IMG/VR virus record: IMGVR_UViG_3300021399_000152
Coordinates: 1 to 64,000 of that record
Reading direction: 5' to 3' (one strand)
Length of the DNA stretch: 64,000 nt
Source of the DNA: a virus
Shown here: piece after piece, positions 20,079-60,830 of the stretch
How the letters are laid out: each line of letters begins with the position of its first letter
Position numbering within the stretch: the stretch's first letter is position 1
The notes under the pieces: generated by a model
Databases searched by the model: none
What the model saw: only the letters and a program-made list of their open reading frames with translations
What the model was told of the DNA's origin: nothing
Made by a program: the position numbers and the translations under genes

Positions 20079-20104
20079 AAGCTTGCGCGAGCAAGCTTTA
20101 TTGA
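20079..20104 (+). terminator. palindromic hairpin (AAGCTTGC-gcga-GCAAGCTT) with short T-tract
   Basis: Perfect 8-bp stem followed by TATT; immediately upstream of tRNA-Gln. Confidence 0.35.
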
Positions 20105-20173
20105 GGTGTAGTTAAACGGCATAACAAGGGACTTTGACTCCCTCGTCGTAGGTTCGACCCCTACCACCTCAGT
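20102..20173 (+). tRNA. tRNA-Gln(UUG)
   Basis: Canonical cloverleaf: acceptor TGAGGTG/CACCTCA, D-arm GTTA-AACGGCA-TAAC, anticodon arm AGGGA-CTTTGAC-TCCCT, T-arm GTAGG-TTCGACC-CCTAC. Confidence 0.8.
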
Positions 20174-20190
20174 CTTTTTTATAAGGAGAG

Positions 20191-21772: not shown

Positions 21773-21834
21773 CGAACTTAAATTTTGTGCACATTTGCAC
21801 ATTTTTCAACTGAAATTTTATACCAACTACACAA

Positions 21835-21925
21835 ACTCGTATGAAAAAGTATGCGTTATCGCAAAAACTCGTATGAAAAAGTGTGCATTATCACAAAAAG
21901 TCGTATGAAAAAGTTGTTATTCAGG
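21835..21925. repeat. three tandem ~32-bp direct repeats (ACTCGTATGAAAAAGTRTGCRTTATCRCAAAA)
   Basis: Copies at 21835-21866, 21867-21898, partial 21899-21925; next to att core, candidate arm-type sites. Confidence 0.55.
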
Positions 21926-41830: not shown

Positions 41831-41843
41831 GACATCATCTCCT

Positions 41844-42935
41844 TTACATGAATGTGGGTGAGTACACAAACTTTAGCCGATCAATTGACATGGTCGTGAT
41901 CGGCGTGATCCAGATATCATCTGTATCAACAATGCGTATATTGTCGTAACTGGTGATAACTCCTTCGCCGATAAAACTGCGAAGAAATATATTATTGTTT
42001 TCCAGCCCCGTTATTTTATAAGGTTTATTCTGAACGACAGCATACTTTCCTATGACATCGTTTGACAAAGGTTTATCAATCTCTAAGCCGAGTTGATCAG
42101 TTTGCGCATCTATAATTAGCTGTCCATGCAAATTACTTGCTAGCGTTCTTGCAGGCGAAATCTGCACGAAGCCACGATCATGCCAAAGATATTTCATATC
42201 TTTATCAGTGCCATTCGTCAGATAGCAATAGCCGTTCAAGCTATCACACACATAGTACTTACCAGCCTGTGTCGTTTCTGCTGCGCTCATTGCCACGATC
42301 TTACAAGTCTGCCCAGTTGTCCTGTTCTCGATGAGCACACCTTGCCCAACATCACCAGCAATTTCCAAGGCAACATCTGCTGTTTCGTTACCGGGGTTCA
42401 TCACATGCAACTGTGTTTCTGCAGTGAGGTTCGTGTATTCGATAGGGAAGGCGCCAGTCATATTCACGAACATGTTTGAATTCGCTACGATATCATCGTA
42501 ATATGGATCATTTTGATCAAGATTTAAAAACTCACAGCGACCAAACGGATAGAAGCACTGCATACGGATCGTGATCATACCGTTAAACTTATTCGTAAGC
42601 TGCGTGTCATCGTAGCTCGTAATGGTCGCGTTATAATAAACCCAAGGCCGCCGCCCAAGCACGAGCTTGCCGGTCGCGCCGACCCTGTAAAAGCTCTCGA
42701 CTTGGGACAGGATACCTTCGGTAATTTTCGATTCTTCAAAAAACATACGAAGCACAATTTCTTTGGGCTTCTTTGTTGCACCATAGAAGTAACCACCATG
42801 GTGACCATCAAAAGTCTGCGAATGTATGTTCGAGGTTGTTGGCCTCCAGACATACATGTCACGAATGTCAGGAGCATACCTGAGGCCAAACTCACCACAG
42901 GAAACACCATTAAATGTGAAGGTCGATAATTCCAC
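41844..42935 (-). CDS. distal tail protein (Dit)
   Basis: N-terminal 'FTFNGVSCGEFGLRY' Dit signature; position between TMP and Tal. Confidence 0.7.
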   Translation of the reverse strand: MELSTFTFNGVSCGEFGLRYAPDIRDMYVWRPTTSNIHSQTFDGHHGGYFYGATKKPKEIVLRMFFEESKITEGILSQVESFYRVGATGKLVLGRRPWVYYNATITSYDDTQLTNKFNGMITIRMQCFYPFGRCEFLNLDQNDPYYDDIVANSNMFVNMTGAFPIEYTNLTAETQLHVMNPGNETADVALEIAGDVGQGVLIENRTTGQTCKIVAMSAAETTQAGKYYVCDSLNGYCYLTNGTDKDMKYLWHDRGFVQISPARTLASNLHGQLIIDAQTDQLGLEIDKPLSNDVIGKYAVVQNKPYKITGLENNNIFLRSFIGEGVITSYDNIRIVDTDDIWITPITTMSIDRLKFVYSPTFM

Positions 42936-42994: not shown

Positions 42995-45900
42995 TTAAAA
43001 ACTAAATTTACTTGTACTGAGTCCTTGCATACTGAGGTCCTTAACGAACTCGCGACCAATCCGAACAGCAAGCTCTTCGAAATCAGCCTCATTGTTGATC
43101 TGGTTCGTGTTGATGTTGATGTCGCCGACCGTAACACGGGCGCCACTTGCCAGAGAAGAGTCGTCATAAATATGACGCACAAAACTGCTGGTGTTAATCT
43201 GCTTGAAAGAGGCAACCATAGTACGCATATCCTGCATGAAGCCACTATCGAGAATGCCGCGCATGGTATTGCGGTCTTCATTATCAAGGAAGGCTTCTGG
43301 CTTGGCGGGCGTGCCGTGAACCATAGCAAGACCAGTGTACTTGACTTCGCCGCCTTCGGAGAAGGGCACTGCATTAAGTCGGTTATTGTTTGCATTTGTG
43401 CTCGTCTTGGTCGGCTTTGCTTGTTGAGCAGTTGGCACGACTCGTTTTACCGTGTAACCCTCATTATATGCTATAAGATTTAAATATTGTTGTGCTCTGG
43501 CTTGGCTGTTAAATGTCTTAACAAGTCTGCCTGTATCGCTATATACACCCCATGTAGATGTTGAATTATTGGTTGTAGTGCTTGGAGAATTTGGACTACC
43601 GGGTCCACCACCACTACCACCTGAACCACCACCGCCGCCGCTTTCGCCGCCGACGTAGTCTGCGAACTCTTCGTCATCATGATGATAAGTTGCCCAGTCT
43701 TCACGCGTTCTCAAATAATACAGATAGCTGCCACTATTAACAGCATCAAGCCATTGATAGAGCAACTCTTCTTTTTCGGTTTCTGAAGCGTTCTTGTATT
43801 GGTCGCTCTCCATCATGAATGCCTTGAAGATATCCTTCCTCGAGAGGATCTGATTAACCTGATCCCAATACGTATCAGTGATGCCAAGCATCTGCTTGTA
43901 CGTATCTTCCCAGCTCTGGACCATCTGGGTTTGAGCGTCTTCAAGACTGTGAGAGTATTCTTTTACGTTGTTCTTCAGCCACTTGAACATATCTTCCTGA
44001 TTCATCTGCATAACTTTGGCAACATCTGTTGAGAAGTTATTTGCATCTTCAAGAAGAAGCTCAAGGTCTTCGTCACCATACTGCTCGTATTTCTCAACAC
44101 CTTTGATCTGGTCGTCGAGAGATTCCTTCTGGGCGTTCGCTTCTTGCTCAGCTGTTTTCCATGCAAGCTCGTCCTCTGTTTCGGCAATCTTCTTACGAAG
44201 TTCTGCTGCATCCTTGGTACGAGTGGAGTCCATGCTGATCAGCGCGAGCTGTCTGCGATACTCGGCAAGCTCTTCATACTTCTTCGCTTCATCTTCTGCA
44301 TCCTTGCGCATCTGCAAGCGTTTGTCGATCAAGCTCTTTTCTTCTTCGAGAGCTTCGCGCTTCTTTTCGAGATCCTTTTTAATTAAATCCCACTCTTCTT
44401 GATGCCTTTGCCTGATAGCTTCAAGAATGGTATCCTGCATTTCAACGGAAGCAGAAAGCATTTCACGCTGTTTCTGGATACGGGCTTCGATCTCTTGGAC
44501 GACCAAGTCTTCAAGATCTGTACGAGCTTTACGAATTGCAGAGTTGTTCTGCTGAATCTTCAGGGTGTTAGCTGTGATCGTATTGTTTGTCTGGTCGAGC
44601 TCTTCCTCATACTTGAGAATTTGTTCATACAGTTTCTGCCAGTCATCAGAACCACGATCAACGGTCTTGAGCTGATTGCGAAGATCAACGATATTTTTGG
44701 AAAGCCGTGAAGCTTTATCTTTCTGTAAAGTGTTTTCGTATTCGATCATATTGTTCTCATTACTGAGCATACCAAGTTGATTATATTTCTGTTCTTGTAA
44801 TTGTGTCATCTTAATACGGTGATCAGCTATGGTGATACGGTTCTTCACATTCTGGAGAAGCTTATCTGTTGCAGACTTCTCTTTATTACCGCCACCGCCG
44901 CCTCCGCCTCCACCGCCGTGGTATGCGCCGGTATTATTCAGTGCGCCAGTAACTGTTGCACCTTTGAGAGCATTCAACACAGTTTCTACAGTGATCTCTT
45001 CACCGTTTTCATGAATTTTGAGAGCAAGTGTGCCGACCAATCCAGCATAGTTTGCCAGCTCTGCAAGACCAGCATCCTGCAAAGACTTAGCTACAGCTGC
45101 AACTTCACTTGCATCGATCTGACCATCAGCAAGTACTTTAAAGTTAATAAGCTGTGTGATATCTACACCATTATTTGCAGCTGATTCAAGACCCTGAATG
45201 AGACGTTGCTTAATTGTTTCGCCAACGCTATTGAGGTAACCCTCATTAGCCGCTGCTTCCATACTGTCAGCAAGCTTAGCCATTTCTTCTGCGCTCATTT
45301 TCTTGAGGTCTTGTTCATCAAGTTCTGTTGCACCAGCAATGACCTTGAGATCAGCAGATTTCAAACCTTTGCCAGCAACGCCCTTACCATTTTTGCCACG
45401 CATTTTATTTGCGGCTATTGCCATATCTCCGTATTTGTTCATTTGCTTGATCATGCTTGATGTAGTCTTCAGAGCAGAAGCTGCGTTCTTGTCTAAGCCT
45501 TCAAGGTTGTTTTTAACTTCATCGCTATAGTCGCCGAATTGTTTCATTGAATTAATGCCGCCATTACGAAGTGTGTTGAAAAGAGCATTGAATACAGTTT
45601 GGCTATCTGCACCTTCTGTATTCAGCAGTTTAAGAGCTTCAGCACCACCATCAAGACTTTGGATCCATTGCTGTAAACCAGTAGTGTCGCCAGCAAGATA
45701 GTTGTTGAATGCTGCGACATCGAACACACCAGCGTCAGCACCGCCAAGGAATGATAAAGCGCCATTATTCTGAGCCCAAGTATCGAGCTGTCCCATACGT
45801 GCAGAATACATTCCATCATAACCAAGAGCTGCATACGAAGAGGCTGCTCTTGCGCGAGCTTCGATCACATCATAATCAGCACCACTTGCAAACTTGAGCG

Positions 45901-48900
45901 AGCCATCCTCATTTGTGGCAAGCTCACGGCCTTCATGTTCGAACAGATCATAGAAGATTGCAGCGATAGCAGGATCAGAGAAGAAGTCTTTCACCGCTCC
46001 TTTGTCTTTCATCCATGCAAGGTCGGAAGATTCAAATGCAGTCTGGAATTCTTCAGCAGAGCTTGAACTGCGAAGCATAGCATAGACATCATCAATTCTT
46101 TTCTGCTTTTCTCTCGTGTCACCAAGATGGCTGGCTTCATCAACCCAGCCTGCAATATCAGCAAAAGAAAAGACGTTGTTTTGGTCGATCTTGGATTGCA
46201 AACCAGCGATCAAATCAATAAAGTCTCCGATCACTGTTCCAATTGCAGTTAATGCGTGGTCGAGAGCAGACTGTTTCGAGTTAATGTCGCTCGTTAATTG
46301 ACTTACAGTAGCACTGGTTATTTGCATAGAGTCGATCTGATCTGTAGTCCAGCCAATTGCTCCAGCTATATCCTTCATTTTCTTAGCATCCAGAGATTCG
46401 CCAGGTTTAGTCATCAGAGCTAATGCATCCAGATATTCATTGTATGTTTTAATCCTGCTCTCAACATCGCTGACGTATTTATTTCTTTGATCTTGTGTGC
46501 CATACAGTTCTGTTGCTCTGCTCATGGTTTCTTGGTCAAAATAATCTGCGTTGGCATTATACATATTAGTCAACAGATTACTTGCTCGTTGCTGTCTGAG
46601 TTGTCTAGCTTCCTCGGAGCTTAATGCCGTGCCTCTCTGAATCAATTGTTCAATACTAAGGCCATTGATATTAGAATATTGGCTTGCTAATGCCGCCTTG
46701 ACTTCTTGATCTTCTCTAGCATAACCACGCAAGATGGCAGTACGACCTATCATACTTGGATTAAGCAATGCATTATAATATTTCATCACATCAGGATTAT
46801 TGTAATCCTGTGATAATGAATTGAAGTAATTTATTCCGGCACTTTCCAAGAATAATTTGCCCATAGTCTGGCGCCAACCATTCTGAACAGCATTTTGATA
46901 TTCAGGGTTTGTTAACATGGTTGACATAAATTCACGCATCATGTCTGAAGACGAAGCACTTAATGCCTGGTTAATAGATGCCGCATCCATGTTGGGTTTG
47001 CTAGTCAGATATCTGTATGCCGCCAATGCCTGATCTTCATATTGATATGGGCTTACATATCCTTTGAAAGCTTCAGATGCTTGATTGGTCCGCGCTGTGC
47101 TTGGCATGAAATAATATTGCCCGTTTGTAGTGGCAAAGAAACCATCACGCGTAGAAAACATATCTTTGACAAATGGCGCATACTCTGGATACGCATTTTG
47201 GAATTCTGCAAGGCCAGAATTTAATGCGCCCCATTCTTTGTCGATGAATGACTGGTATGTTTTTAACTCATCGGCAGTCTTGCCTTTGGTATCAATCTTA
47301 AAGAAAGATGATACTAAGTCGCGATCAGCTTCAGACGTACCACCATTCATGAGTCTTGTGAATGCATTGATAGCTTCGCTTTGTTGCACAAAAGTATTTA
47401 ATGTTGTAGAGACGGCAGACGATGCGTCAGCACCGCCAGTACCAAGTTTGATATTCTCAAGCTGTTTGAAGTTTTCGGCTACCTCTTTCGAGATGATACC
47501 AAGATTTACGAGATCATCATAATGGTCAATCTGAATCTCAACATTGGCTTTCAGGCTCAGTTGGTCAAGCTCTTTCTGAATTTGAGCATAATCAACATCG
47601 GCTGCTAACACCAATGAACCATTTTCATCTCGTTCAAAATTACCGGTATCAGTATTGAACTGGAATAAACGATAAAGCACAGATGCAACATCTTTATTAC
47701 CAGCAAACTCTTTAAACTGGTCAGCATTTTTTACCCAATCAAGATTACGTAACTGTTCAATGAATGCCTGTCCATTCTGAGCTCTGTTGGCAGCACCAGC
47801 AAGATCAGCATATTGTTGTTGACGATATCTTTGAGCACCCTTGCCACTGCCGGTATTAACCCAATCATACAATTCTTCTAATGTCCACTGTTTCGATTCT
47901 GCTGTAAGATCTTTGGTGGCATTGCTCAATGAGGTGGAGAAACCATCCGCAGCGTCTCCAGCCAAAGCAACAGAAGAAGTAAAGGTGGAAATTGTGCTTT
48001 CAAGAGTTATCGAAGCTTTAGCAATGCTTTCATCAGATGTCGTCAAACCAGCAATAGCATCCTCGGTCATACCGCCAGTTCTTGCAACTTCCTGAATAGC
48101 AGAAAGTGATCTTGCATATTCAGGCAGCCTCTGTTGGAATGCAAGAGCAGCACGACTAGTTCTGTATTGTTCTGAAGTTTGATGAACTTGATTGAGATAT
48201 TGCAACTGCTCTTGTTCAGTGCCATACAAATTTTGCGCACCAGATAAAATAGAGTAATCGTATCCATAAGGATTTGCAGCATATGACTGCATCAGTTTAT
48301 TTTGAGAATATGCAGAACGAACTCTGTTTATATCCTGTTGTGTTAGCTTTTGTCCTTGCGACACTTTGGGCAATAATTCTTCTAACAGGCTTTGCCCAAT
48401 CCATTGCCCAAGAACATTTTTCAGCGGATTGTTGTTATCTAAGTTTTTCAACACAGACTGATCAGATTTAAGTAAGGCATCATAATATGATTTAACTGTT
48501 GCATTATTGTAATCTGTGTTAAGAGGATTAAAGGCATTATATCCATACGCGCCTTGAGAGAAAATATCTGCAACACTTTGCCAATCTCCATTGTTAATAA
48601 AGTCAAAGTACTGTGCATTTTTCGATAATTCATTCAAGAAATCCGAAGATGTTCTCTCTTGCAATTGAGCATGGAAATTGTCTGGTATTTTGTAAGTTTG
48701 ACTTTCTTGATCATAAAAACTGTTGAGCAAATCATATGCGTTCTTATAATCATTGACTGCATTGTATTTAACAACATTCGCATCGAGTTTCTTTTCGTAA
48801 TCATACATAGAACGATCAGCTGCCTGATATATGTATGACCCTGTTTTATCATTCCAGATTAATCCAGACTCCAAAAGCCGTGAATCAATATCTGCCCTTT

Positions 48901-51900
48901 GCTCATCAGAGACGTATGAACGAAGCATGTTAGCTTCACGCACAGCTGTATCCATATCAGATTTATCATTTAGCAACATTTGTTTGTATTTATAAGATCC
49001 AGCTTGCACATCTTCTACTTCACGCCCAAGCATTGCAGCTACAGTTTGGTAATCCTGACTCAAGGCGCCGTTATCATTTGCAATTCTCGAAAGAGCACTA
49101 TAATAGTCAGCTCTTCCAGTAATTGAATTGACTATCTTGTCAATAGACGTTTGTCTTTCTGTGCCAGATGTAGATGTCTGCAAAGTTGTATAGTTGCTAG
49201 CAAAGTCACTTGAGATAAGACCAAGATCACGCTGTGCGGTAATTTCCTTTTGCGCAATTTCATCTAACAACTGTTTTCTGATTAATTCATCTGTGCCTTG
49301 GCTGTCAACAAACTGCTGCAGATTGGGATATGTAGCTTTAACACGCGCAAGCAATCCTTCGTTGGTCTGAGCAAATGCTTGAGTTTTGGCATACGGATCC
49401 GCAGCATTAAGTATCTGTCTTGCCATATCATTGATTTGAGCATTTGTATAATAAGTATCGAATGATGCAAATGGGTTTTCTTTATTCATTGTGATGCCGC
49501 CATTGGTATAGCGTGCAAGCACATTACCATTTTCATCCATATCAAATCCGATACCGTACATGCTAAACAAGTTCCACATACTCTGAAGCATCGGGTTGTT
49601 GTTGACAATATCACTTAATGCTTTGCCTTTGTTTGACGGGAGTTTGGCATAGCTTGATAATGTCTTACTATAATTTTGGTCAATGCCAGACAGGAAAGAA
49701 CCGCTGTTTGCATAATAATTCTGCATGAATTGGGTATAGATTGCATCAAAATTATCCTCGAGCATTTGAGGTGTTGCTCCGGGAACATACTTTGCAATGA
49801 TTTCCCTTAACTTCTTATCACTACGCGCAGACTCTTTATCAACACTCATCACCTGATATTGCTCTGCTAATGCCGTTGCATACTTTGTAATGTCTTCCAT
49901 GTAAGAAGTAAACGAATTGGCACCAAGAGACTTTGATAACAAATGACGCCCAAGATCATCCTGATCGTATACACCAGTACCTTTGAGCAGATCTGCCATT
50001 ATTTCAGTGAGATCATTGTCAGCCTGCTGCAGCTTTTCAATATTATCTACTCCTCTGGTTGCCTCGGAAAATTTGTTGATGTCTTCGGCATTGCTTGCCC
50101 ATAAAGCAAATAGCTGTCTATATTCATCAACATAACCCTTTTCTTTGCTTGTTAATTTATTAGCGTCAACAAGATCACCGAGAGATTGACGAGCACGTAA
50201 ACCAGTTGAATTTGTTATAGCTGCATTAGCGATGTCATTAAAGTTCATTGCACGAAGAGCATTAAGCTGCTGCTTAACTTCTTCCGAATCTGCGGACTTG
50301 TAGAAGCTGTCAATGGCTTGCGTGATAGCTTCTTCTGTGAGCTCATCGAAACCAATCAAACCATTGTAACTATACCGGAAAGCATTCTTATCATTTGGCT
50401 TAAAAATATCATAGATAGTACGGTCGCCATTAATGAATGATTCCATATATTTTTTAATATTGGCAGAGCTTAAACCTTCATCGCTCATCTGTTTGAGTTC
50501 TTTGTCATAGTATTGCCCGATGTAGTCTTGTGCGAATCCTTTAATCATCTCATCGCTGGTAATACTCATCGTTTCAAAAACAGGGCGCAAGTTATCTGTA
50601 AATAAAGTTTCGATCTGGTCAGCTCTCAAACTTTCGATAGTTTGTTTGCTTTCTTCCAAAACATTATTTAAAACACTGCGCGGTTGTATCATTGCAGTTC
50701 TAAAACCGTTGACTATGCTGTAAATATCGTTAAGATCTGCTTCATCTCTATCGATAGGATAAAGAGCATATTCCTTGAGGATTGAAGCAAACTCTTTGTA
50801 CGATGTGATTTCTTTACCACCAACTTTAAGACCGGGTGTTTGTTTGATATATTTATCGAGCGCATCCGTAATATCATTGATATTTCCAACTTGTTCACCA
50901 TTTTCATTCCAAAAGTTGGTATCAATTGCATTACTCATACCAGATGCATTTGCGAACAATAATTCCGTTAGTCCACCTAATGTGCTAGTGCTGGAAAATA
51001 ATCTGCCTTGCAATACTTTGCTTAATTCACCATATGACCCATTGGCAAGTAGCTCTTTTTCACTATCAGTAAGAGATATACCTATGTCTTTGAAGTCTTG
51101 TTCTGTTAAAATATCTTTGTCGCTTCGATATAATGCTTCTAAATTATCATACAACTGTGGAGTTTTACCAACAAAGTTATTTAATCTTGCATACACGTAT
51201 CCATCACTAGTCAATTTCGTACCAGTATGTTCAGCAAGAAATGTTTGCTCTGTATCTTTGTATGTGTTAAGACTTTCAGTAATGCCACCCATAGCTTCTG
51301 CTAACAAGGTTGAAGCATCAGTTTTATTTTGCTGCTCGCTTGCTTCTTTTGCTCTCTTTGCAACTTCAGTGTAATATTCAAGAGAACCAGAAGCTTGGTT
51401 AACATTATCAGTAAGGCCAGAAAAATACACTGACAACGTTTGGACCGCAGTACCAAGAGCATCGGTAGCCTCTGTAGGAATGTTATCAAATGTGTCTTCA
51501 TACTTTGTCGTGATGTTATCAATATCATTGATCGCATCTTGAACCGCTTTTCTGCGTCTATCTTGTTTTTCTTTGAGTGCATTTGTATTTGTTCTTGACA
51601 GTTCACCATCTGTTTCCTTTTGTTCCGGTTTGCCAAAAAGCGCATTTCCGATTCCACCAGCTGTGCCAGCAACACCGGCAATTGCACCAATAGCAGCAAC
51701 AGTACTAATCAGACCAGCAGAAGCAGCAGCCCATTTAGTAATAGCCAAAGCATCAGGCATAGTTGCGATATCTTTAAGGAAACCAAAGACCGCTATCTTA
51801 ATTGACAATGCACCAAGAGCCGCGATTAATGCTGTGATCACAGGGATCGCCGCACTGCCAGCCTCACTCAGATTTGTGAAACCTTGGACCAAACCAGTGA

Positions 51901-54900
51901 CACCATTGAGCAAACCAGTGATCATATTATCCGAACCAAGGCTTTCAACGAAACCATCAAATGTAGACTTCAGGTTATCCATTGCAGCCTGAATTCCTTG
52001 GATTACAACTTCATACTTACTCTGAACTGTGTTATCAGAATTATCAGCAAGACCAAGATATTCATCAAGCAGCTTGCCGCCATCTTCGCCCATGCCAGCC
52101 ATAAGTGTATTGAACATGTTAGCCTGACGACCGCCAGCCATTGCATAAGTAATGTTGCCTTTCTGTAAGTCAGACAACCCTTCCCATACAGAAGCAAGTT
52201 CTCGAAGCACATCGAAAGAACTACGGAACACATCTTTGCTTGATCTTAATCTGATGCCAGCAGTTTTCAATGCGGTTTCAACATCATTGATACTTGTGGT
52301 TTCACCGGTTTCGTCCGTAATGAAACCTTCTTTTGTAACACGATTCATACGGCTGAACAATGTCTGGAAAAATGTACCAGCCTGTGCACCACCGAGCTGT
52401 GTCTTACTTGTTGCAATAGTCAGCATTGATGTCAATTCATTGTAGGAGACTCCGGCAGTCTTTGCAGAGGCCGCAGCTTTCTGCATACCTTTTTCAATTT
52501 CTTCTGCGGTCGTAGCTGCACTATCGCCAAGAGCAGTGAGTACATCCATAGCCTGATTAATATTGGACACGAGTCCAGTTTGAATAGCAGTTGTAAGACC
52601 TTTTGTTGCATCAGTGATTTTCGCACCGGTTACAGTACTAAACTTAACGATAGCATTTGTTCTTTCTTCTACCTCTTTATCTGAAAGACCCTGTCTGTAA
52701 AGAGCAGCCTTAGTTGAAGTAACATTGGAAACAGATGTTTTTAATTCTTTTGCTTGCTTGATAGAAGAAGCACGCACTTCACCCATCTCACCGGTAGACT
52801 TACCAGAAATTGCTTGAATAGTCAACATGTCAGCGTTGAACTGACGCACGAATGTAGAGGCTTCTTTAAAAGCAGTTTGCAATGCTCGCTTGCCTAACTG
52901 AAGAAGGAGATTTTCCGCAGCATTGCTGACATTCATTAACGTAGTACGAAGCAGACCACCAGTAGAACTGAATTCTTTCATGGCAGCATCTGCCTGAGTT
53001 AAGCTTGCATCGTAGTCGGCAAGAGCATTATTGGCAATACGGATGTTTTCATCAATCAAAGCAAGCTTATCTGTATCGGTTGGATCAGTGTGCTTCCTTT
53101 GATAATTTAACTGATTGATATGAGCATTTGTTCTGTCAATTGCAGTTTGCGCTGAATTGCGTTGGTGCATCCATGACAAATACTGCTGATCATTATACTG
53201 CCAACTACGGCCCACAAATGTCGGACCATACTGTAAGCGAGCCATGTTATACTGCCTCTTAGCAGCATCAAGCTGAGCCATGTTAATTTTATGCCCAATG
53301 TCACCATTAGATTTTGTTTCTAATAATTGAAGCTTTTGACGTTCCTGTTCATCCTTTATAATATCCTGCAAGATTTCACCGGATTGAACTTTGCCATTTG
53401 CATCAATATATTTTTGTAAAGCAGAAGGTATATGTTGTTTACCATCACTGCCTTTAAAAGCATCGTCTTGAAACAAAGATTTAAGCTGCGTTGCCAAAGA
53501 AGCACTTCTAAGTTCTGACATTTTCATGCTTGATGTGCCGACCCCAGTAAGAGCAGCGGTAATGTTGGCAACTTGTTCCATCTGTTTGTTGTGGAAAGCC
53601 TCAAGCTCAAGTTTTTCATTAGCATCTAAATCAATAGATTGTGAACGGGCAAGTTGTTGTTTAAGTCGTTTAACTTTCAAATATTGTGCATACTCATCTG
53701 CATAATTCTGTTTAAGAAATGCTTCACCGTTTGCCTGACCTAAATAACCCTCAATTAAACCAGTACGCAAATTAGCGCTATTTTCCAATATATCATCTTG
53801 AAGCATCTTTTCAACAGCTTGTTTTTGACTGCGTTTTATGTCAAATGAGCTTTTGATTTTGGATCCACTTGTCTGTGTCTGATATGCATCAATTGCTTTA
53901 TCAATGAGTTGACTACGATATTCTTGCAAATCAAAACTATCAAGATCACGCAGCAATGCATCATATAGATGTTGCTGATCCAGATTTAAATTTTCACCCT
54001 CGAATATTTTGGCAATGGTTGCTTTGCTTTGATCAATATCAAACTGCTTTTTAGCAACCGCAGCTTGTATGTCTGCACGAGTATCTGACGCACCAATAAT
54101 ATCATTAACTGATGCTCGCTGTGATGTTAATGCATCGCCAATATAACGTTGACGGAGCTTTTCCATGTTATCATCAGTTAGAAGAGCTTGAGCCTGCATA
54201 CTAAGTGCAAGAGCCTTGTCGTCGGAATACAGACCGCTTTTTCTGAATTCTTCGATATTACCAAGATGTCTTCCTACCATCAGCTTGTAATTATCAAGCT
54301 GCTGTTTAATGCTTGGCACCTTTTTATCTGGACCAACCTCACCGCTGATTTCTCTTGATAAAGTATCATATTCATCTTCGATGATTTCGTCAGCCTGATT
54401 GCTTAATGTTTCCTGAAATTTTTGCCGAGCTTCTTCCGCCTTCAAACCTAACTTCTGTGCAAGTCTCTGGTTTTGTTTATATCCTTTGACTCGTGCAGCA
54501 GTTTCTTGCAGTTGAGAATTGAAGTCGCTTATTTTTGCATTATATTCCTCTTCAGAAACTTCATTCTTTTTCTGCTCGTCTGTCATAGTGCCAGAAGCTT
54601 TTGCTTTAGCAATATCTTTTTGCTGTTTTATAAAAGCACTGCGTTCATCTTTTATTTTCTTACCAGTACCTTTACTTTCATCAATAAGTTTACTCAACTC
54701 ATTGTAATCATTATTCGCATTCTGTACTGCCTTCGCTAAATCATTCCATTGTTCTGTCAAACCTTTTGCTTCTTTAGAAGCGATCATTCCTTTATTCGTT
54801 CTTTCAATTTGATCAGCAAGGTCAGAATAGCTACGGATAGCGGCTTCTGGAACAGTCCTATAATAAAGATCTTTTATATCATTTGTTTCTCGCTGTAACC

Positions 54901-57900
54901 TTGCAGCTTCTGCGAAATTACCACGAGCTTCAAGAGTTGCAATTGTATCTTCGTTCCCTCGGATTGTTGCGTGATAGCTGTCCCAAATGTTACCTATTGT
55001 TTTTTCGTCCTCTGGAATTAATTTTCTTTGGATCGATTTCGACAGCTTTTGTGTTCTCTCCATCGCCTCTTTGTAATCTTCATGCGAAGTTAAAACACCG
55101 CCCAAAGCACCGGCATCAGAGATTCCTGTGCCACGCATTTGCTTGATTGCGCGTTCAGACAATTGCAATTCTTTCGCGAACTCATCGTCGATTCCGCCAC
55201 TAAACATTAATTTATTAGCAAGTAAACTAGCTCTTTGTATTGCATCAAGTCCAAGCCCGGAAGTTGAAAAATTCTGTATTGTTTGAATGACACGCGATGC
55301 TGCACGCACAGCATGCGCTATGGATTCTTGACTAGAGTCTATAGCATACATGTTTTGTCCAGCTGCAGCGTCAGCCAAAAGCACATTCAATGCACCAATA
55401 CCATTGTTTTTGAATTTATCAGGACCGCCTTGACGGAACTCGTCAGCATTTGCATACATCTGCAGCTGGAAGGCAACAGCTCGTTTTTTATCCATTGTGA
55501 AATCTTCAAGACCGCCATATGTTTTAATATCAATAATGTTGAGCTTATTATCTTTGTCCAGCATTCTGAACAGCAAGTCCTGATGACCATGCATATCAAT
55601 GGATTTTGACGAGTCACCAAGTTGCTCACCAAGTTTACTAATAGTCAGATCATCTTCGCTACCGATATATTCATTTGCTAACTCTGGGAGAATAGACAGA
55701 ATGCCCTTTTGATTTTGAGATGACATAAAAGCTTTGAATCTTCTGTATTTCTTTTGCAATCTGGATTCTGCTATATGACCACCATTGGGCTTAGAAGTAA
55801 TTTCATCAATCATTGCTTCAATACGTTCGTCATCCCAGTTAGCATCTTTGCCCAATGCCCGAAGCCTATCACTAAATGATTCAAATTTAATATTCTTTGA
55901 ACTATCTTCTGGATCTACTATTTCTTTACCATTCCAGATATCTTCAAGCAGTTGTCTCTTAACAGCTTCTGGCAAAGCTCGTGTTGCATTTGGATCATCT
56001 TTCAATTGCTTGCGCACAAGCTTTTCGCGAATATCAAAGTAATCCTGAATCATATCTTCTGCAGCATGACCAAACATAGTATGTGCATTTGTACCAGTGT
56101 CTCGCTTGGTGTCCATTTGTCCAAGCTGATTAACAACCCAGTCAACAGGGTCTTCTGCAAAATGGATCAAGCTTGTTACAGACCATCCAGTATTATCGAG
56201 TTTATCTTGTATAGCATCGTGTGGGAGATATTTAAGTTTACCAAGCGCAGAGGACGGATCAACACGTTCATACTGCCTTTTAGATGACAAAGCCATTTTG
56301 GCAATACTGTCGAAGTCAAGATGGCTTGTGCTATATCCACCGCCGAATCTTTTAAAAGCACGCATAGTACGTTTAATTGAATCGGAAGCATCATTGATGT
56401 GTTCATCTGTCAAGCCGTAATTAGGGTCAAGCAAGTTGCTAAGAACAGTTCCACCAAACTCGCCAATAATATATTCTGCTTCTTGATGGTTATGTCCATT
56501 TCTCATTTCAGCGTTAATTGCTTTCGTGCGCATATCAAGCAACGCGTCAGCATCATGTTGCGATGCAATAACATAGTCGCCGCGAAGTTCGCCAAGAAGC
56601 AAGCTTTCCATGCCAGTAATAAATTGTCTTGTTTCTTTTGTTAATGCCGATTCTGATGCCTCATTTAAATAACCTTTATCTTTAAGTCTTTGTAAATTGC
56701 CCAGAGTAGAGTTGGCAAAAGCAGTACTCCAACTTACACCATTATCCAGCTGCACACCGTTTTGTGCAGCGGTACTTCTTGCAAGTAATGAAGCTAAGAT
56801 GTTCCCAGACATATGTATCGATGGCAAATTCATTTTGAACAAATTTGTCTTTAAGAAACGACCATAGTCAATATTGTTTTTACTATCTCTGCTCTTCATT
56901 AATTGGTTGTTAAACTGGTCCCAAGACTTATAACCAAACAAAATATTTTTTGCTGTATCTGGTGTTTCAAAGAAATAACCAGTTTTTGCAGAAGTAGAGT
57001 TTGTATCGTATTGGTCAAAAGCCATGATAAGTTCTTTCGCAATATCTGGAGTGATATCCATCTGCATTGCGTTTCTGGAAATAGCATTAGGCCCGCCCAT
57101 TCGAATTGATTGCATCATAGAGGCTGTGACCCACCGTCCAACATCCAACGCATTACGCGGATCGAACTTTTTCTGGTCACCAAAAATGCTACGCTTTTGT
57201 TTCTCAAGAATACGGTCGCGCTCATCCGGGGCAAGCTGAGCTCTCGCAACAAGATCGTTATGATATGTAACAGTCTTATCCCAGATTTTATTCATCATGT
57301 CTTGCATGGTAGTGCCATCTTTGCTCATAAGATCAATGATATCTGACATATCACCGTCAAAGTCAGCACCTTGCATTAATCCGAGAAGAGGAGAGTCTTG
57401 TGCCAAATAGATAGCATTCGGGTCCATACCAAGCTGTTGGACGAGCTTCCTGAAATTAGTACTTTTAAGTGCCTTATCATTAGCTCTGTTATTTATTTTT
57501 TGTGCTGATTGGATCTGTGCCGGGAAACGGCTAATACCCAACAGTGTAGCCATACTCTTAGAGAACACAGCATCGTTCTCGCCTATACGTAATCTGGCAA
57601 TATCTGCCGAGCTTAATTCTTGCCCATTGGCATCCTTCGGCAACAGATCTTCTATAACTTGCCCAGTCTTTTTATCGATAAAACGCCTTGCTTTTCCGTT
57701 AGTAATCGGGCCAGCTTCCGGTACCCAGCCTCCATCCCACATATTCCGCGGAACTTGGTCGGCACCGATTTGCCCTCTTTTATACATTTCATTGATAGCA
57801 TCTGAGAATACATTGATTGCCCAAGGAGCCAGCATGCCACGATGCGCCTGTACTCCCTCAGGCATAGGAAGATCGCCTCGACTCATACGTTCAATCATAT

Positions 57901-60406
57901 GAGTTCTAAATGCTTCAATACGATTCTTGTAAGGTTTCTTATTTAATAGAGCGGCACCGCCTTCTGAAAGCAGGCTGGTTGAGAGGGCACTGTCATCAGC
58001 GAAAATATATTTCGCCGCACCTGTTGGCGTACCAACACTTCTGAATATATCCCAGAATGTTTTTTGAAACACATCGGCTTGGTTCGCATCAATATCAAGT
58101 GTCTGAGCAAGCTGTGCAGGAATCCATGTTAAATGTGTACGCCCAGCTTGATTTGCAGTTCTATTAACATAGATACTATTGTCGGCAATGTTCTGTGCAA
58201 TAATTTTTTGGATCTCATCATAAGAAGCATTTTTGCCGAACCTTAATCCAGCACCCTTTAAGTCTTCCATATTGATGACCATCTGGGTGTCCTTTGTAAT
58301 CTTTTGCAATGTGCCGCCATAGCCAGGAACTACGATTTCACCATTCTTGTTGCCGGTAAAAGCTTCAACAACATTACCCATATTGACAGAGTTCAGAACA
58401 CCTTTGTAGCCAAACATACGAGCCTGAAATGCGTTGCCACCAGTCAACCCGCTACTGATATAACTAGCACCGTTCAATCCTGGAACTTTTGTTTTATCGT
58501 TCGCACCAGTGTATGCTGCCATATCAACGATAACAATTTTGTCTTTGTCAGGCAAAGCATCTTTACCATACAGTTGTCGTATATCTACACCTTCTGTAGC
58601 GATCTTGGAACTGTACTCCATGAACTTGGCAAAGTCTTGGCTGTTATCGAAAACTCTTGGAGTAATGCCACCAGTAAAGAAATTTTTCAAACCTTGTTTA
58701 TTTTCAATGTTATCAACTATGTCAGCGCGAACCATTTCAATGCCAAGGGACTTCGGATTAATTCTGGTTGCTTTGAACTTTGTTTTTTGACCGCCAATTT
58801 TAACTGACGTTCCTTTTGTGTACAGTTCGCCAACTTGACGCATAAGATTATCGCGTACATCCTGCGGAGTAGATTCGTCGATCAAACGCGGATCCAAATC
58901 AATATAAAAGACATAATCAAGAGCAGAATTGTGAGGGAGTACTCGACCACCCTCTGCAGTTCTCATTATTTTGTCCAACCCCATACTGCCATTGACAACC
59001 ATCTTGTGTGCTCGATCAGTCTCACTATAAGGATCTCCGCTCTGCCAACTTCTGTGCTGTGCAATATCGTCTAATGAATAATGAGTAACCTGATAAGCAT
59101 TAGGAGTCGCATCAAAATGAATGTTGCCTAATTGCCTCGTGCTGTTATTAATTCTATTAAGATCCACCTTGGGATTCTTTGCTTGCGCTTTTGTGCGCAT
59201 CTGAGATACAACTTGTGTGTTTAAATCATTGATTTGTGATGAACCATACAGAAGGGGAGTAAGCCAATCAAAATGATCCGACAGGAATCTGGCAGCACTC
59301 ATAGAACCGTTCAGCAATTTATTGTTTTTATTCAAGATGCGTTCAAAGTCGTCAGGATTATTTACATCTTTGATACCATACATCGGCATGCCACGAGCGC
59401 CGTTTTCGATCATCTGATACAAATAACCGGCAGCAGCATTAACTTGCTGTCTTGTCACGTGCCTATTAACACTCAAAGTGCCTTTTGATCTTGATGCAAT
59501 GCCAGCAAGTTCTGCAGCCTGAGCCATATAAGTATTTTCTTGAATTACATCTCCAAGACTCTTTTTCTGTCTTCTGGTAAGAAAGTCATTGTTTGTAAGT
59601 AATGAAGCAAAGTCTGCATTGGACACTTGTGTAAGACCAGTGCGAGCTTTCTTGAAAGCTTTCGGAAGCATATCCTCATAACTCTCAAAAGAGCCAATAT
59701 GACTATGCTTCATACCTTTGAAATGTTGCATGTAGTCATATCGTTGCACAGCATCCAAAACATTCACAATGCTGTAATCGACAAGTGACTCCATAAAATT
59801 ATCTAAGTTTTGACCTTTGGGTATTTTGCGCTGTTTGCCTTTTGCTGTCTTTGTCTGAAAGAAAGCCAAGCTCGACATGCTTTCCAAAATACCTTGATAT
59901 TCTTCGGTTGCCATAACAGCTGAGCGTATATATTTATCAGGAGATAAAGAAGTAATTCGACTTGTGTTATCTCCGAACGTGTTGCCAACTGACCGAATAA
60001 GTCTGTTCAAAGCTGGAAGCTGCTTTTCAATATGATGGATGTCAGACTCACTAAAGTGGAACCCATTCAGTGTTTTAGAAAGAGCTTGCAGCTTAGACAA
60101 ATCGTGTGAAATAGCAGTCATTGTCTTAGCGCCAAATTCATATTCACCAGTACGAAGCTCAGATGTATATGAATTCATTTTAGTATCTGGATCTGTTAAT
60201 TTCTCTTTAGCGGAGTCCATCAAATCAACGGCATCCTGAACTTCTGTGCGTAAATGCCGTGTGTAATTATTAAAAATTGTTGGTCCTCTGCTCGCTGTTC
60301 TCTCTATATTTTCCAAAGACTGATTTAATTTTTCGCCAGCATCAGCTGCCGCAATAAGATCTTGATATCCATCAAGTTGTATTGTCATTGATAATACATC
60401 AGCCAC
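42995..60406 (-). CDS. giant tape measure protein (5,803 aa) with ~2,400-aa N-terminal polyvalent-like extension
   Basis: AGGAG RBS; uninterrupted ORF. TP901-type tape measure core at nt ~52330-52990 (...AIQTGLVSNINQAMDVLTALGDS...GVSYNELTSMLTIATSKTQLGGAQAGTFFQTLFSRM), Gly/Ala-rich hydrophobic segments, periodic aromatic helical repeats, typical C-terminus (...VTVGDININTNQ...). Position MTP-G/GT-TMP-Dit-Tal. Confidence 0.85.
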   Translation of the reverse strand: MADVLSMTIQLDGYQDLIAAADAGEKLNQSLENIERTASRGPTIFNNYTRHLRTEVQDAVDLMDSAKEKLTDPDTKMNSYTSELRTGEYEFGAKTMTAISHDLSKLQALSKTLNGFHFSESDIHHIEKQLPALNRLIRSVGNTFGDNTSRITSLSPDKYIRSAVMATEEYQGILESMSSLAFFQTKTAKGKQRKIPKGQNLDNFMESLVDYSIVNVLDAVQRYDYMQHFKGMKHSHIGSFESYEDMLPKAFKKARTGLTQVSNADFASLLTNNDFLTRRQKKSLGDVIQENTYMAQAAELAGIASRSKGTLSVNRHVTRQQVNAAAGYLYQMIENGARGMPMYGIKDVNNPDDFERILNKNNKLLNGSMSAARFLSDHFDWLTPLLYGSSQINDLNTQVVSQMRTKAQAKNPKVDLNRINNSTRQLGNIHFDATPNAYQVTHYSLDDIAQHRSWQSGDPYSETDRAHKMVVNGSMGLDKIMRTAEGGRVLPHNSALDYVFYIDLDPRLIDESTPQDVRDNLMRQVGELYTKGTSVKIGGQKTKFKATRINPKSLGIEMVRADIVDNIENKQGLKNFFTGGITPRVFDNSQDFAKFMEYSSKIATEGVDIRQLYGKDALPDKDKIVIVDMAAYTGANDKTKVPGLNGASYISSGLTGGNAFQARMFGYKGVLNSVNMGNVVEAFTGNKNGEIVVPGYGGTLQKITKDTQMVINMEDLKGAGLRFGKNASYDEIQKIIAQNIADNSIYVNRTANQAGRTHLTWIPAQLAQTLDIDANQADVFQKTFWDIFRSVGTPTGAAKYIFADDSALSTSLLSEGGAALLNKKPYKNRIEAFRTHMIERMSRGDLPMPEGVQAHRGMLAPWAINVFSDAINEMYKRGQIGADQVPRNMWDGGWVPEAGPITNGKARRFIDKKTGQVIEDLLPKDANGQELSSADIARLRIGENDAVFSKSMATLLGISRFPAQIQSAQKINNRANDKALKSTNFRKLVQQLGMDPNAIYLAQDSPLLGLMQGADFDGDMSDIIDLMSKDGTTMQDMMNKIWDKTVTYHNDLVARAQLAPDERDRILEKQKRSIFGDQKKFDPRNALDVGRWVTASMMQSIRMGGPNAISRNAMQMDITPDIAKELIMAFDQYDTNSTSAKTGYFFETPDTAKNILFGYKSWDQFNNQLMKSRDSKNNIDYGRFLKTNLFKMNLPSIHMSGNILASLLARSTAAQNGVQLDNGVSWSTAFANSTLGNLQRLKDKGYLNEASESALTKETRQFITGMESLLLGELRGDYVIASQHDADALLDMRTKAINAEMRNGHNHQEAEYIIGEFGGTVLSNLLDPNYGLTDEHINDASDSIKRTMRAFKRFGGGYSTSHLDFDSIAKMALSSKRQYERVDPSSALGKLKYLPHDAIQDKLDNTGWSVTSLIHFAEDPVDWVVNQLGQMDTKRDTGTNAHTMFGHAAEDMIQDYFDIREKLVRKQLKDDPNATRALPEAVKRQLLEDIWNGKEIVDPEDSSKNIKFESFSDRLRALGKDANWDDERIEAMIDEITSKPNGGHIAESRLQKKYRRFKAFMSSQNQKGILSILPELANEYIGSEDDLTISKLGEQLGDSSKSIDMHGHQDLLFRMLDKDNKLNIIDIKTYGGLEDFTMDKKRAVAFQLQMYANADEFRQGGPDKFKNNGIGALNVLLADAAAGQNMYAIDSSQESIAHAVRAASRVIQTIQNFSTSGLGLDAIQRASLLANKLMFSGGIDDEFAKELQLSERAIKQMRGTGISDAGALGGVLTSHEDYKEAMERTQKLSKSIQRKLIPEDEKTIGNIWDSYHATIRGNEDTIATLEARGNFAEAARLQRETNDIKDLYYRTVPEAAIRSYSDLADQIERTNKGMIASKEAKGLTEQWNDLAKAVQNANNDYNELSKLIDESKGTGKKIKDERSAFIKQQKDIAKAKASGTMTDEQKKNEVSEEEYNAKISDFNSQLQETAARVKGYKQNQRLAQKLGLKAEEARQKFQETLSNQADEIIEDEYDTLSREISGEVGPDKKVPSIKQQLDNYKLMVGRHLGNIEEFRKSGLYSDDKALALSMQAQALLTDDNMEKLRQRYIGDALTSQRASVNDIIGASDTRADIQAAVAKKQFDIDQSKATIAKIFEGENLNLDQQHLYDALLRDLDSFDLQEYRSQLIDKAIDAYQTQTSGSKIKSSFDIKRSQKQAVEKMLQDDILENSANLRTGLIEGYLGQANGEAFLKQNYADEYAQYLKVKRLKQQLARSQSIDLDANEKLELEAFHNKQMEQVANITAALTGVGTSSMKMSELRSASLATQLKSLFQDDAFKGSDGKQHIPSALQKYIDANGKVQSGEILQDIIKDEQERQKLQLLETKSNGDIGHKINMAQLDAAKRQYNMARLQYGPTFVGRSWQYNDQQYLSWMHQRNSAQTAIDRTNAHINQLNYQRKHTDPTDTDKLALIDENIRIANNALADYDASLTQADAAMKEFSSTGGLLRTTLMNVSNAAENLLLQLGKRALQTAFKEASTFVRQFNADMLTIQAISGKSTGEMGEVRASSIKQAKELKTSVSNVTSTKAALYRQGLSDKEVEERTNAIVKFSTVTGAKITDATKGLTTAIQTGLVSNINQAMDVLTALGDSAATTAEEIEKGMQKAAASAKTAGVSYNELTSMLTIATSKTQLGGAQAGTFFQTLFSRMNRVTKEGFITDETGETTSINDVETALKTAGIRLRSSKDVFRSSFDVLRELASVWEGLSDLQKGNITYAMAGGRQANMFNTLMAGMGEDGGKLLDEYLGLADNSDNTVQSKYEVVIQGIQAAMDNLKSTFDGFVESLGSDNMITGLLNGVTGLVQGFTNLSEAGSAAIPVITALIAALGALSIKIAVFGFLKDIATMPDALAITKWAAASAGLISTVAAIGAIAGVAGTAGGIGNALFGKPEQKETDGELSRTNTNALKEKQDRRRKAVQDAINDIDNITTKYEDTFDNIPTEATDALGTAVQTLSVYFSGLTDNVNQASGSLEYYTEVAKRAKEASEQQNKTDASTLLAEAMGGITESLNTYKDTEQTFLAEHTGTKLTSDGYVYARLNNFVGKTPQLYDNLEALYRSDKDILTEQDFKDIGISLTDSEKELLANGSYGELSKVLQGRLFSSTSTLGGLTELLFANASGMSNAIDTNFWNENGEQVGNINDITDALDKYIKQTPGLKVGGKEITSYKEFASILKEYALYPIDRDEADLNDIYSIVNGFRTAMIQPRSVLNNVLEESKQTIESLRADQIETLFTDNLRPVFETMSITSDEMIKGFAQDYIGQYYDKELKQMSDEGLSSANIKKYMESFINGDRTIYDIFKPNDKNAFRYSYNGLIGFDELTEEAITQAIDSFYKSADSEEVKQQLNALRAMNFNDIANAAITNSTGLRARQSLGDLVDANKLTSKEKGYVDEYRQLFALWASNAEDINKFSEATRGVDNIEKLQQADNDLTEIMADLLKGTGVYDQDDLGRHLLSKSLGANSFTSYMEDITKYATALAEQYQVMSVDKESARSDKKLREIIAKYVPGATPQMLEDNFDAIYTQFMQNYYANSGSFLSGIDQNYSKTLSSYAKLPSNKGKALSDIVNNNPMLQSMWNLFSMYGIGFDMDENGNVLARYTNGGITMNKENPFASFDTYYTNAQINDMARQILNAADPYAKTQAFAQTNEGLLARVKATYPNLQQFVDSQGTDELIRKQLLDEIAQKEITAQRDLGLISSDFASNYTTLQTSTSGTERQTSIDKIVNSITGRADYYSALSRIANDNGALSQDYQTVAAMLGREVEDVQAGSYKYKQMLLNDKSDMDTAVREANMLRSYVSDEQRADIDSRLLESGLIWNDKTGSYIYQAADRSMYDYEKKLDANVVKYNAVNDYKNAYDLLNSFYDQESQTYKIPDNFHAQLQERTSSDFLNELSKNAQYFDFINNGDWQSVADIFSQGAYGYNAFNPLNTDYNNATVKSYYDALLKSDQSVLKNLDNNNPLKNVLGQWIGQSLLEELLPKVSQGQKLTQQDINRVRSAYSQNKLMQSYAANPYGYDYSILSGAQNLYGTEQEQLQYLNQVHQTSEQYRTSRAALAFQQRLPEYARSLSAIQEVARTGGMTEDAIAGLTTSDESIAKASITLESTISTFTSSVALAGDAADGFSTSLSNATKDLTAESKQWTLEELYDWVNTGSGKGAQRYRQQQYADLAGAANRAQNGQAFIEQLRNLDWVKNADQFKEFAGNKDVASVLYRLFQFNTDTGNFERDENGSLVLAADVDYAQIQKELDQLSLKANVEIQIDHYDDLVNLGIISKEVAENFKQLENIKLGTGGADASSAVSTTLNTFVQQSEAINAFTRLMNGGTSEADRDLVSSFFKIDTKGKTADELKTYQSFIDKEWGALNSGLAEFQNAYPEYAPFVKDMFSTRDGFFATTNGQYYFMPSTARTNQASEAFKGYVSPYQYEDQALAAYRYLTSKPNMDAASINQALSASSSDMMREFMSTMLTNPEYQNAVQNGWRQTMGKLFLESAGINYFNSLSQDYNNPDVMKYYNALLNPSMIGRTAILRGYAREDQEVKAALASQYSNINGLSIEQLIQRGTALSSEEARQLRQQRASNLLTNMYNANADYFDQETMSRATELYGTQDQRNKYVSDVESRIKTYNEYLDALALMTKPGESLDAKKMKDIAGAIGWTTDQIDSMQITSATVSQLTSDINSKQSALDHALTAIGTVIGDFIDLIAGLQSKIDQNNVFSFADIAGWVDEASHLGDTREKQKRIDDVYAMLRSSSSAEEFQTAFESSDLAWMKDKGAVKDFFSDPAIAAIFYDLFEHEGRELATNEDGSLKFASGADYDVIEARARAASSYAALGYDGMYSARMGQLDTWAQNNGALSFLGGADAGVFDVAAFNNYLAGDTTGLQQWIQSLDGGAEALKLLNTEGADSQTVFNALFNTLRNGGINSMKQFGDYSDEVKNNLEGLDKNAASALKTTSSMIKQMNKYGDMAIAANKMRGKNGKGVAGKGLKSADLKVIAGATELDEQDLKKMSAEEMAKLADSMEAAANEGYLNSVGETIKQRLIQGLESAANNGVDITQLINFKVLADGQIDASEVAAVAKSLQDAGLAELANYAGLVGTLALKIHENGEEITVETVLNALKGATVTGALNNTGAYHGGGGGGGGGGNKEKSATDKLLQNVKNRITIADHRIKMTQLQEQKYNQLGMLSNENNMIEYENTLQKDKASRLSKNIVDLRNQLKTVDRGSDDWQKLYEQILKYEEELDQTNNTITANTLKIQQNNSAIRKARTDLEDLVVQEIEARIQKQREMLSASVEMQDTILEAIRQRHQEEWDLIKKDLEKKREALEEEKSLIDKRLQMRKDAEDEAKKYEELAEYRRQLALISMDSTRTKDAAELRKKIAETEDELAWKTAEQEANAQKESLDDQIKGVEKYEQYGDEDLELLLEDANNFSTDVAKVMQMNQEDMFKWLKNNVKEYSHSLEDAQTQMVQSWEDTYKQMLGITDTYWDQVNQILSRKDIFKAFMMESDQYKNASETEKEELLYQWLDAVNSGSYLYYLRTREDWATYHHDDEEFADYVGGESGGGGGSGGSGGGPGSPNSPSTTTNNSTSTWGVYSDTGRLVKTFNSQARAQQYLNLIAYNEGYTVKRVVPTAQQAKPTKTSTNANNNRLNAVPFSEGGEVKYTGLAMVHGTPAKPEAFLDNEDRNTMRGILDSGFMQDMRTMVASFKQINTSSFVRHIYDDSSLASGARVTVGDININTNQINNEADFEELAVRIGREFVKDLSMQGLSTSKFSF

Positions 60407-60705: not shown

Positions 60706-60716
60706 AAATAATTAAA

Positions 60717-60791
60717 TGCCCAAGACGAGACTTGAACTCGTAGTTGTACGGATTTTAAGTCCGCTGTGTCTGCCTATTCCACCACTCGGGC
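60717..60791 (-). tRNA. tRNA with anticodon UAA (Leu) but class-I-sized variable region
   Basis: On - strand: GCCCGAG-TG-GTGG-AATAGGCA-GACAC-A-GCGGA-CTTAAAA-TCCGT-acaact-ACGAG-TTCAAGT-CTCGT-CTTGGGC-A; D-arm nearly identical to the tRNA-like family. Confidence 0.65.
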
Positions 60792-60830
60792 AAGCTTGCT
60801 AAGGACACGAATGCCCCTAGCAAATTGCGA

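Follow-up and report, generated by a model that had tools for sequence, protein, structure and literature searches.

What would an RNA polymerase be doing inside a phage tape measure protein (TMP)? The question is raised by a single giant gene on the minus strand of the stretch of viral DNA analysed here (64,000 nucleotides, hereafter the window), in whose product an initial annotation, made from the letters alone, had recognised a pair of motifs resembling the beta-like and beta'-like barrels of single-chain RNA polymerases. Three matters are at stake: whether the protein is really a TMP, whether the motifs belong to a polymerase, and at which moment of the infection such an enzyme would work. 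The positions of all features discussed are collected in Table 1.

Table 1. Features of the giant tape measure gene and of its surroundings, in window coordinates (aa, residues of the giant protein)
Feature	Position	Strand	Basis
Giant tape measure gene	42995..60406	minus	Single ORF, 17.4 kb, 5,803 aa, 0 Cys (ORF list, translation)
YonO-like single-chain two-barrel RNA polymerase module, aa 211-1400	56207..59776	minus	Predicted
Beta-like barrel (DPBB-B) motif F660-Q-A-R663-M-F-G-Y-K668	58403..58429	minus	Conservation, beta-hairpin in the model, YonO alignment
K717, invariant lysine of the beta-like barrel region	58256..58258	minus	31/31 sequences
R960-F-P962, RxP element opening the beta'-like barrel (DPBB-A)	57521..57529	minus	29/29 covering sequences; YonO alignment
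G-A-D1015-F-D1017-G-D1019 (aa 1013-1019), predicted Mg-binding Asp triad	57350..57370	minus	Conservation; alignment with YonO DNDGD
RecB/Cas4-type PD-(D/E)xK nuclease module (predicted), aa ~1401-1740	55187..56206	minus	E1584, D1610, D1626-x-K1628, Q1647xxxY1651
Tape measure core, aa 2550-2758	52133..52759	minus	Pfam PhageMin_Tail, E 1.9e-23; PHROG matches
Hydrophobic, probably membrane-spanning segment, aa 2892-2925	51632..51733	minus	Hydrophobicity scan
Dit (distal tail protein), next gene downstream of the TMP gene	41844..42935	minus	PHROG 33 and 202
Large 1,920-aa tail protein, Tal position, downstream of Dit	36107..41869	minus	PHROG minor tail / tail protein families; faint Prophage_tail Pfam match
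Integrase	~20425-21537		Gene call
SpoIID/NlpC-P60 lysin	23052-24374		Gene call

Judged from its sequence, the product of the giant gene is a genuine tape measure protein, to whose N-terminal third two enzymes would have been added. It has the core domain, for which 10 of the 11 PHROG matches are to TMP families, as well as the hydrophobic segment, and its gene is placed between tail tube/chaperone genes and the gene of the distal tail protein. Upstream of it we find a YomU_Tube tube gene together with further genes matching SPbeta-named Pfam families (YonB, YomX_C, YomU_Tube). The identical protein was called on five metagenomic contigs of ~117-118 kb.

The plus strand of the window offers from 1 to 21.5 kb a row of tightly packed, small unidirectional genes, and leftward of this region there are genes for replication and nucleotide metabolism (Pol III alpha, ThyX, dUTPase and NrdD), with the DNA polymerase III alpha subunit encoded within 10 kb of the window's left end. 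Six tRNA-like elements, recognised neither by Rfam nor by ARAGORN and with unremarkable folding energies, lie between the small early genes of the plus strand (6.2-14.3 kb). The occurrence of an integrase and a lysin suggests that this SPbeta-like phage is temperate and has a Gram-positive host. The early region had been described as promoter-poor, a claim that was weakly borne out: 30 sigma-70-like sites were counted in positions 1-20000 versus 42 ± 7 in shuffled sequences, that is, ~1.7 standard deviations below. Such a mildly low count makes this a weak argument, and transcription of the early genes may well be left to the host RNA polymerase. A second polymerase was looked for in the part of the genome covered here, all but ~38 kb of ~118 kb: HMMs of alignments A2 (see below) and A3 and the DxDGD motif found none in the window and L002, and no RNA polymerase Pfam family was present among the gene calls of the further 10 kb to the left.

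The polymerase-like region is shared by a whole family of proteins. An exhaustive phmmer search with aa 401-1400 against 1.8 billion cluster representatives yielded 46 proteins, including one identical to the window protein and 23 giants of 3,695-6,003 aa. Homology spans aa ~200-1400 in all the relatives found in this way, and a TMP core follows the polymerase module in each of the 25 giant homologues. All family members are metagenomic, and neither megablast nor tblastn gave any match to the family in INPHARED. When the single protein was used to search genome and viral contigs, no related loci were found; a degenerate DNA pattern for Y-x11-Q-x2-DFDGD, later scanned across IMG/VR, gave 13 further family loci on contigs of 45-151 kb.

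Trimmed segments of 31 sequences, with 21-42% identity to the window protein, make up alignment A2, in which Q661, R663, K668, K717 and Q765 are kept in all the sequences. Likewise, D1015, D1017, D1019, R960 and P962 are kept in each of the 29 homologues spanning that site, around a central triad residue that varies among F, E, I, L and Y. The beta-like motif takes in the family the form F-Q-x-R-x-x-x-x-K, which by the conservation counts of A2 is, together with the Asp triad, one of the two most conserved spots. R960-F-P962 is placed 52 residues before D1015 and passes the filter [RK]xPx{20,100}DxDxD, which looks for [RK]xP at 20-100 residues upstream of DxDxD (PMC10770324, Suppl. Data 4); the signature occurs in 29 of the 31 sequences, the remaining two being fragments that end before the site. 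As for chance, the composition of the protein itself leads to an expectation of 0.006 occurrences for DFDGD and 0.0006 for ADFDGD. The looser patterns DxDxD and GxKG are each observed once in the whole protein, versus 2.6 and 1.8 expected, respectively.

Most of what the initial annotation had read in these motifs stands. GADFDGD is found at the residues it gave, preceded directly by PLLGLMQ (aa 1006-1012), but its coordinates were one base off (57349-57369 for 57350-57370), whereas the range given for the beta-like motif, 58395-58424, does span the core of FQARMFGYKGVLNSV (aa 660-674, 58385-58429 on the minus strand). The gap of ~350 residues between both motifs amounts to 352 when counted from R663 to D1015, and the annotation was right both in the order, beta-like first and beta'-like afterwards, and in the placement within the N-terminal extension of a real TMP. 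The proposed equivalence of 'GYKGV' with the 'GNKGV' motif of the beta subunit can be kept for the conserved R663 and K668 and has to be dropped for G666, G669 and V670, which are not conserved.

Membership of the two-barrel RNA polymerase superfamily is marked by a DxDxD Asp triad in the beta'-like barrel (PMC7824862). In the second barrel, where two basic residues are expected, the invariant R663, K668 and K717 all lie on predicted beta strands and are aligned to R/K residues of YonO; we infer that two of them serve the active site. Regarding the overall fold, AlphaFold2 run on A2 modelled aa 211-1400 with confidence (mean pLDDT 83.9, pTM 0.81), placing FQxRxxxxK on a beta-hairpin (fragment strands 450-454 and 457-464) and the Asp triad in the loop that joins a short helix to a beta strand, an arrangement known from the barrels of RNA polymerases. 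Past the triad, where a bridge helix and a trigger loop would be expected, the model shows long helices, and G1104, Y1133 and K1141 are conserved in this stretch. A Foldseek search of the PDB with the predicted model retrieved solved polymerases, namely RDR2 from maize (E 5e-7) and Arabidopsis (E 3e-6), gp62 of P74-26 (E 7e-3) and gp64 of P23-45 (E 0.05), all the other matches being noise (E > 1).

The closest relative of the module by sequence profile is YonO, which is encoded by the Bacillus prophage SPbeta. A comparison with hhalign of the A2 profile gave 92.8% for YonO alone and a probability of 96.7% for a 20-member YonO alignment (E 4.2e-10), over 433 columns that take in the N-terminal domain as well as the two barrels (A2 257-758 versus YonO 88-559). 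In this comparison, FQGRxxGxK is paired with FMVRLPWIK of YonO, LGIxRxPAT with VDILRSPHL and LQxADFDGD with MLQFDNDGD. The relationship is a remote one: the window protein escapes a simple HMM built from the YonO alignment. For YonO, DNA-dependent RNA polymerase activity is proven and the Asp triad is essential for catalysis (PMC5467207), and the alignment of GADFDGD to this triad, added to its conservation in the family, supports the early reading of the motif as a Mg-binding beta' barrel element. A profile comparison with the YonO family and a structure prediction had been named as the ways of checking that reading, and both came out in its favour, with RNA polymerases as the only matches among solved structures. 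Altogether, the predicted fold and the homology give good support to reading aa ~211-1400 as a YonO-lineage RNA polymerase, single-chain and with two double-psi beta-barrels.

Next to the polymerase, the protein carries a predicted nuclease, in which the series E...D...(D/E)xK...QxxxY is found on a RecB nuclease fold. In its more distant half, the family has no nuclease motifs, which indicates that the polymerase is independent of the nuclease. A further peculiarity concerns cysteine, which is absent from the 5,803 residues of the window protein and occurs from zero to three times in its relatives, in comparison with 14 residues in the 839 aa of YonO and with cysteine contents of 0.8-1.7% in other proteins of the window. 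This composition supports a module that would be adapted to the life of an ejected virion protein and not to the cytoplasm.

When, then, would such an enzyme act? The best guide is gp96 of the Thermus phage P23-45 (PDB 8H2M/8H2N), a demonstrated case of such a fusion which the initial annotation does not mention. It is a 5,002-aa TMP whose N-terminal ~1,200 residues form an active RNA polymerase of clamp-less, flat shape; it is found at full length in virions, occupies and transcribes the pre-early genes, and, according to the proposal of the study's authors, works at the pore of the TMP while the DNA enters (PMC10770324). By analogy, we regard as probable, at about 0.7, that the window gene encodes a YonO-lineage polymerase which is delivered by the virion as part of the TMP, injected and used to transcribe early genes. 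The whole polypeptide would be assembled into the tail as a TMP and, at infection, expelled into the cell envelope, where the TMP part would act as a DNA conduit. As the N-terminal end would adjoin the entering DNA, the tethered polymerase may be able to transcribe the first genes to enter without the host RNA polymerase. Its beta-like barrel would contribute R663/K668 (and K717), and its beta'-like barrel R960-x-P962 and the Mg-binding D1015/D1017/D1019, whereas the nuclease would act on DNA at the same site. The logic of gp96 carries over to this case because a polymerase expressed from a late tail operon could act early only if carried by the virion. We infer here the catalytic activity, the presence of the N-terminal part in virions, its injection, the genes transcribed and the substrate of the nuclease. 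Two observations count against delivery by the virion: the closest characterised relative, YonO, is a non-virion enzyme of late genes, and there is no detectable sequence relationship between the A2 profile and gp96, the one proven TMP-fused RNA polymerase (hhalign 0.4%).

The kinship with YonO, which is non-virion and transcribes the late operon of SPbeta (PMC5467207), is also the main point for a different role, in which the newly made protein, either whole or as a proteolytic N-terminal fragment, would transcribe the late operon in the cytoplasm, the fusion merely coupling its synthesis to late expression. This possibility fits the SPbeta-like character of the structural genes and the presence of a gene for a DNA polymerase III alpha subunit within the 10 kb on the left side of the window. 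We nevertheless hold it to be rather unlikely, given that the gene lies inside the late structural operon, so that its own product would be unable to start that operon, and that the module is as free of cysteine as the virion enzyme gp96, in contrast to YonO. Moreover, the fusion has been retained in 25 of 25 giant homologues, and the sole TMP-polymerase fusion studied is packaged at full length. The module could also be active without being a transcriptase of early genes, making primers together with the nuclease, copying single-stranded templates (DNA or RNA) in the way of QDE-1 and RDR enzymes, or helping to pull the DNA in. This strikes us as very improbable, since YonO is strictly DNA-dependent and processive (PMC5467207) and the nuclease motifs are missing in the more distant half of the family.

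That the two motifs coincide by chance, or that the module is a decayed, inactive remnant now serving the tape measure as mere extra length or as a plug, might be argued from the result of direct sequence searches, which for aa 1-1500 gave nothing relevant in Pfam, in PHROGs and, with phmmer, in the PDB. Against it stand the very low expectation for DFDGD, the invariance of catalytic and basic residues among relatives that share 21-42% identity, the confident fold with its exclusive matches to RNA polymerases, the hhalign result with YonO (E 4e-10), and an Asp triad that no family member has lost. We give hardly any credit to coincidence or decay, which can be considered effectively excluded. 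To return to the virion-delivered early polymerase, a more daring version of it is also conceivable, in which the injected protein would 'resect and transcribe' at the opening of the TMP channel. The entering genome end would first be cut back by the nuclease to a single strand, on which the polymerase would start in a QDE-1-like manner, without a promoter of the host type. We find this distinctly unlikely; if true, it would be an initiation strategy undescribed for any phage. As a looser addition to this idea, the six tRNA-like elements might be start, stop or processing signals of the polymerase.

Among known systems, YonO is related to the window module by the order of the barrels and by its closeness in sequence profile, and SPbeta-like structural genes surround the module. 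In other respects they differ: YonO is a free-standing protein with DNDGD, whereas the window module has DFDGD, exceeds it by ~350 aa and forms one protein with a nuclease and a TMP. In the YonO alignment, C799, C802, C816 and C819 are invariant and form two CxxC pairs, probably a zinc-binding element, and the window protein lacks these four C-terminal cysteines. The absence of cysteine and the fusion to other modules indicate a sister lineage of YonO, not its orthologue. The podoviral enzymes, such as phi14:2 gp66 of a crAss-like phage and the N4-type virion RNA polymerases, are giant internal or ejection proteins and not tape measures; a 2020 crAss-phage preprint describes a DFDxD motif in virion proteins of crAss-like phages. 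Finally, the non-virion RNA polymerases gp62 of P74-26 and gp64 of P23-45, and the eukaryotic QDE-1 and RDR2, are free-standing and share ~10% identity with the window module.

It is with gp96 that the window protein has its architecture in common, a genuine TMP whose N-terminal part is a polymerase module. Searching PDB sequences with the family profile found nothing, although the gp96 structures are deposited there. In the window protein, a Pfam search finds no metallopeptidase domain, in contrast to gp96, and there is an additional RecB/Cas4-type nuclease. The carriers also differ, P23-45 being a Thermus Oshimavirus and the window phage an SPbeta-like one from an animal-associated metagenome, with its integrase and SpoIID/NlpC-P60 lysin. 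The searchable literature yielded no description of a TMP carrying a YonO-like polymerase, and a 'Cyano_RUMTOR_01356' family with DFDGD is listed for the gut siphovirus genomes BK033905.1 and BK034237.1 (PMC10770324, Suppl. Data 4). On sequence grounds, and judged against the systems compared above, a YonO-lineage polymerase with a nuclease in a TMP would be a new version of the known fusion of TMP and RNA polymerase.

TMP-fused virion RNA polymerases were earlier thought to be peculiar to a few Thermus phages. The present family suggests that a different polymerase lineage, the one to which YonO belongs, has given rise to this solution or at least possesses it, with a fusion spread through a sizeable clade of metagenome phages of ~45-150 kb (23 clusters below 50% identity and 13 IMG/VR contigs). 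TMP-tethered transcription during DNA entry would then be a recurrent strategy and not a one-off, for which a mesophilic system becomes available for testing. Moreover, the added nuclease suggests that a small set of enzymes can travel with an ejected TMP. In this line, gp96 has zero cysteine, as the window protein does, and this absence in both independent fusions offers a simple signature by which further ejected enzymes might be searched for.

The aspartate triad of the predicted YonO-like RNA polymerase module (D1015/D1017/D1019 of the giant tape measure protein, TMP) occurs in variant sequence contexts among metagenomic homologues (P0015, P0018, P0019, P0020, P0024, P0026, P0034 and P0036), namely DEDGD, DIDGD, DLDGD, DYDGD and DFDSD, and all three aspartates are retained in every one of them. 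Not all of the family has the nuclease module that follows the polymerase: the closer half conserves it, whereas the distant half lacks it. In the C-terminal half of the TMP, an internal duplication with repeated blocks of the form '...DYNN..V..YY.ALL...' suggests that the protein has been lengthened through segment duplication.

The giant TMP contains not a single cysteine in 5,803 residues, and neither does P23-45 gp96, the TMP-fused virion RNA polymerase of a Thermus phage. Relatives of the giant TMP contain 0-3 cysteines; by contrast, the 839 aa of YonO include 14, and the cysteine content of the proteins neighbouring the TMP is 0.8-1.7%. Ejected tail proteins may be recognisable by such an absence of cysteine.

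Features of the tape measure protein and of other loci in the window
Feature	Position	Strand	Remarks
Giant TMP	42995-60406	-	5,803 aa
RecB/Cas4-type PD-(D/E)xK nuclease module	55187-56206	-	aa 1401-1740 of TMP, immediately C-terminal to polymerase
Internal TMP duplication	46761-46807, 48468-48514		aa ~3960-4550
tRNA-like elements (6)	6250-6400, 6386-6545, 10883-11128, 11455-11586, 12343-12477, 14100-14256	+
tRNA-Leu(taa)	60716-60792	-	Within late operon, 310 nt upstream of TMP start
tRNA-Ser(cga)	18653-18735	+
tRNA-Gln(ttg)	20101-20174	+	Directly upstream of integrase gene
Tyrosine integrase	~20425-21537	+
Three tandem 32-nt repeats	21830-21925		Gap where plus- and minus-strand gene blocks converge, adjoining integrase
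SpoIID/NlpC-P60/SH3 lysin	23052-24374	-
Tail-fibre-like protein	27814-32085	-	1,423 aa; 8 stretches matching one PHROG family (25468)
SPFH/Band-7 protein	1994-2938	+	Early block
RNA ligase 1-like protein	4140-4751	+	Early block
DHH/DHHA1 phosphoesterase	14903-15865	+	Early block

Besides three tRNA genes, the window carries six tRNA-like elements of ~115-245 nt each, all within intergenic gaps of a plus-strand cluster of small genes. They share a conserved 5' part, ATGCGGTGGCGGAATAGGTAGACGC (acceptor plus D-arm-like), and a conserved 3' part, GTCAGGTGCAAATCCTGACCCGCAT (T-arm-like plus acceptor complement), separated by a variable middle, and none was recognised by ARAGORN or Rfam. Among the tRNA genes proper, tRNA-Gln(ttg) could be an attachment-site tRNA, and the tandem repeats (CAMAAACTCGTATGAAAAAGT...) might represent operator or attachment-region repeats. 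As the integrase and the lysin suggest, the phage is probably temperate and its host Gram-positive (Bacillota), although one partial member of the family bears a Prevotella MAG label. As for the tail-fibre-like protein, its PHROG 25468 stretches correspond to the DNA repeat families D1, D2 and D5.

The general layout of the genome is similar to that of the Bacillus prophage SPbeta, as seen in the 10-kb flanks on either side of the window in the 118-kb contig (L002 and L038, 1-10000 of each). These flanks contain a long unidirectional gene block encoding DNA pol III alpha, ThyX, dUTPase, NrdD and glutaredoxin, together with YonB, YomX and YomU-type structural genes.
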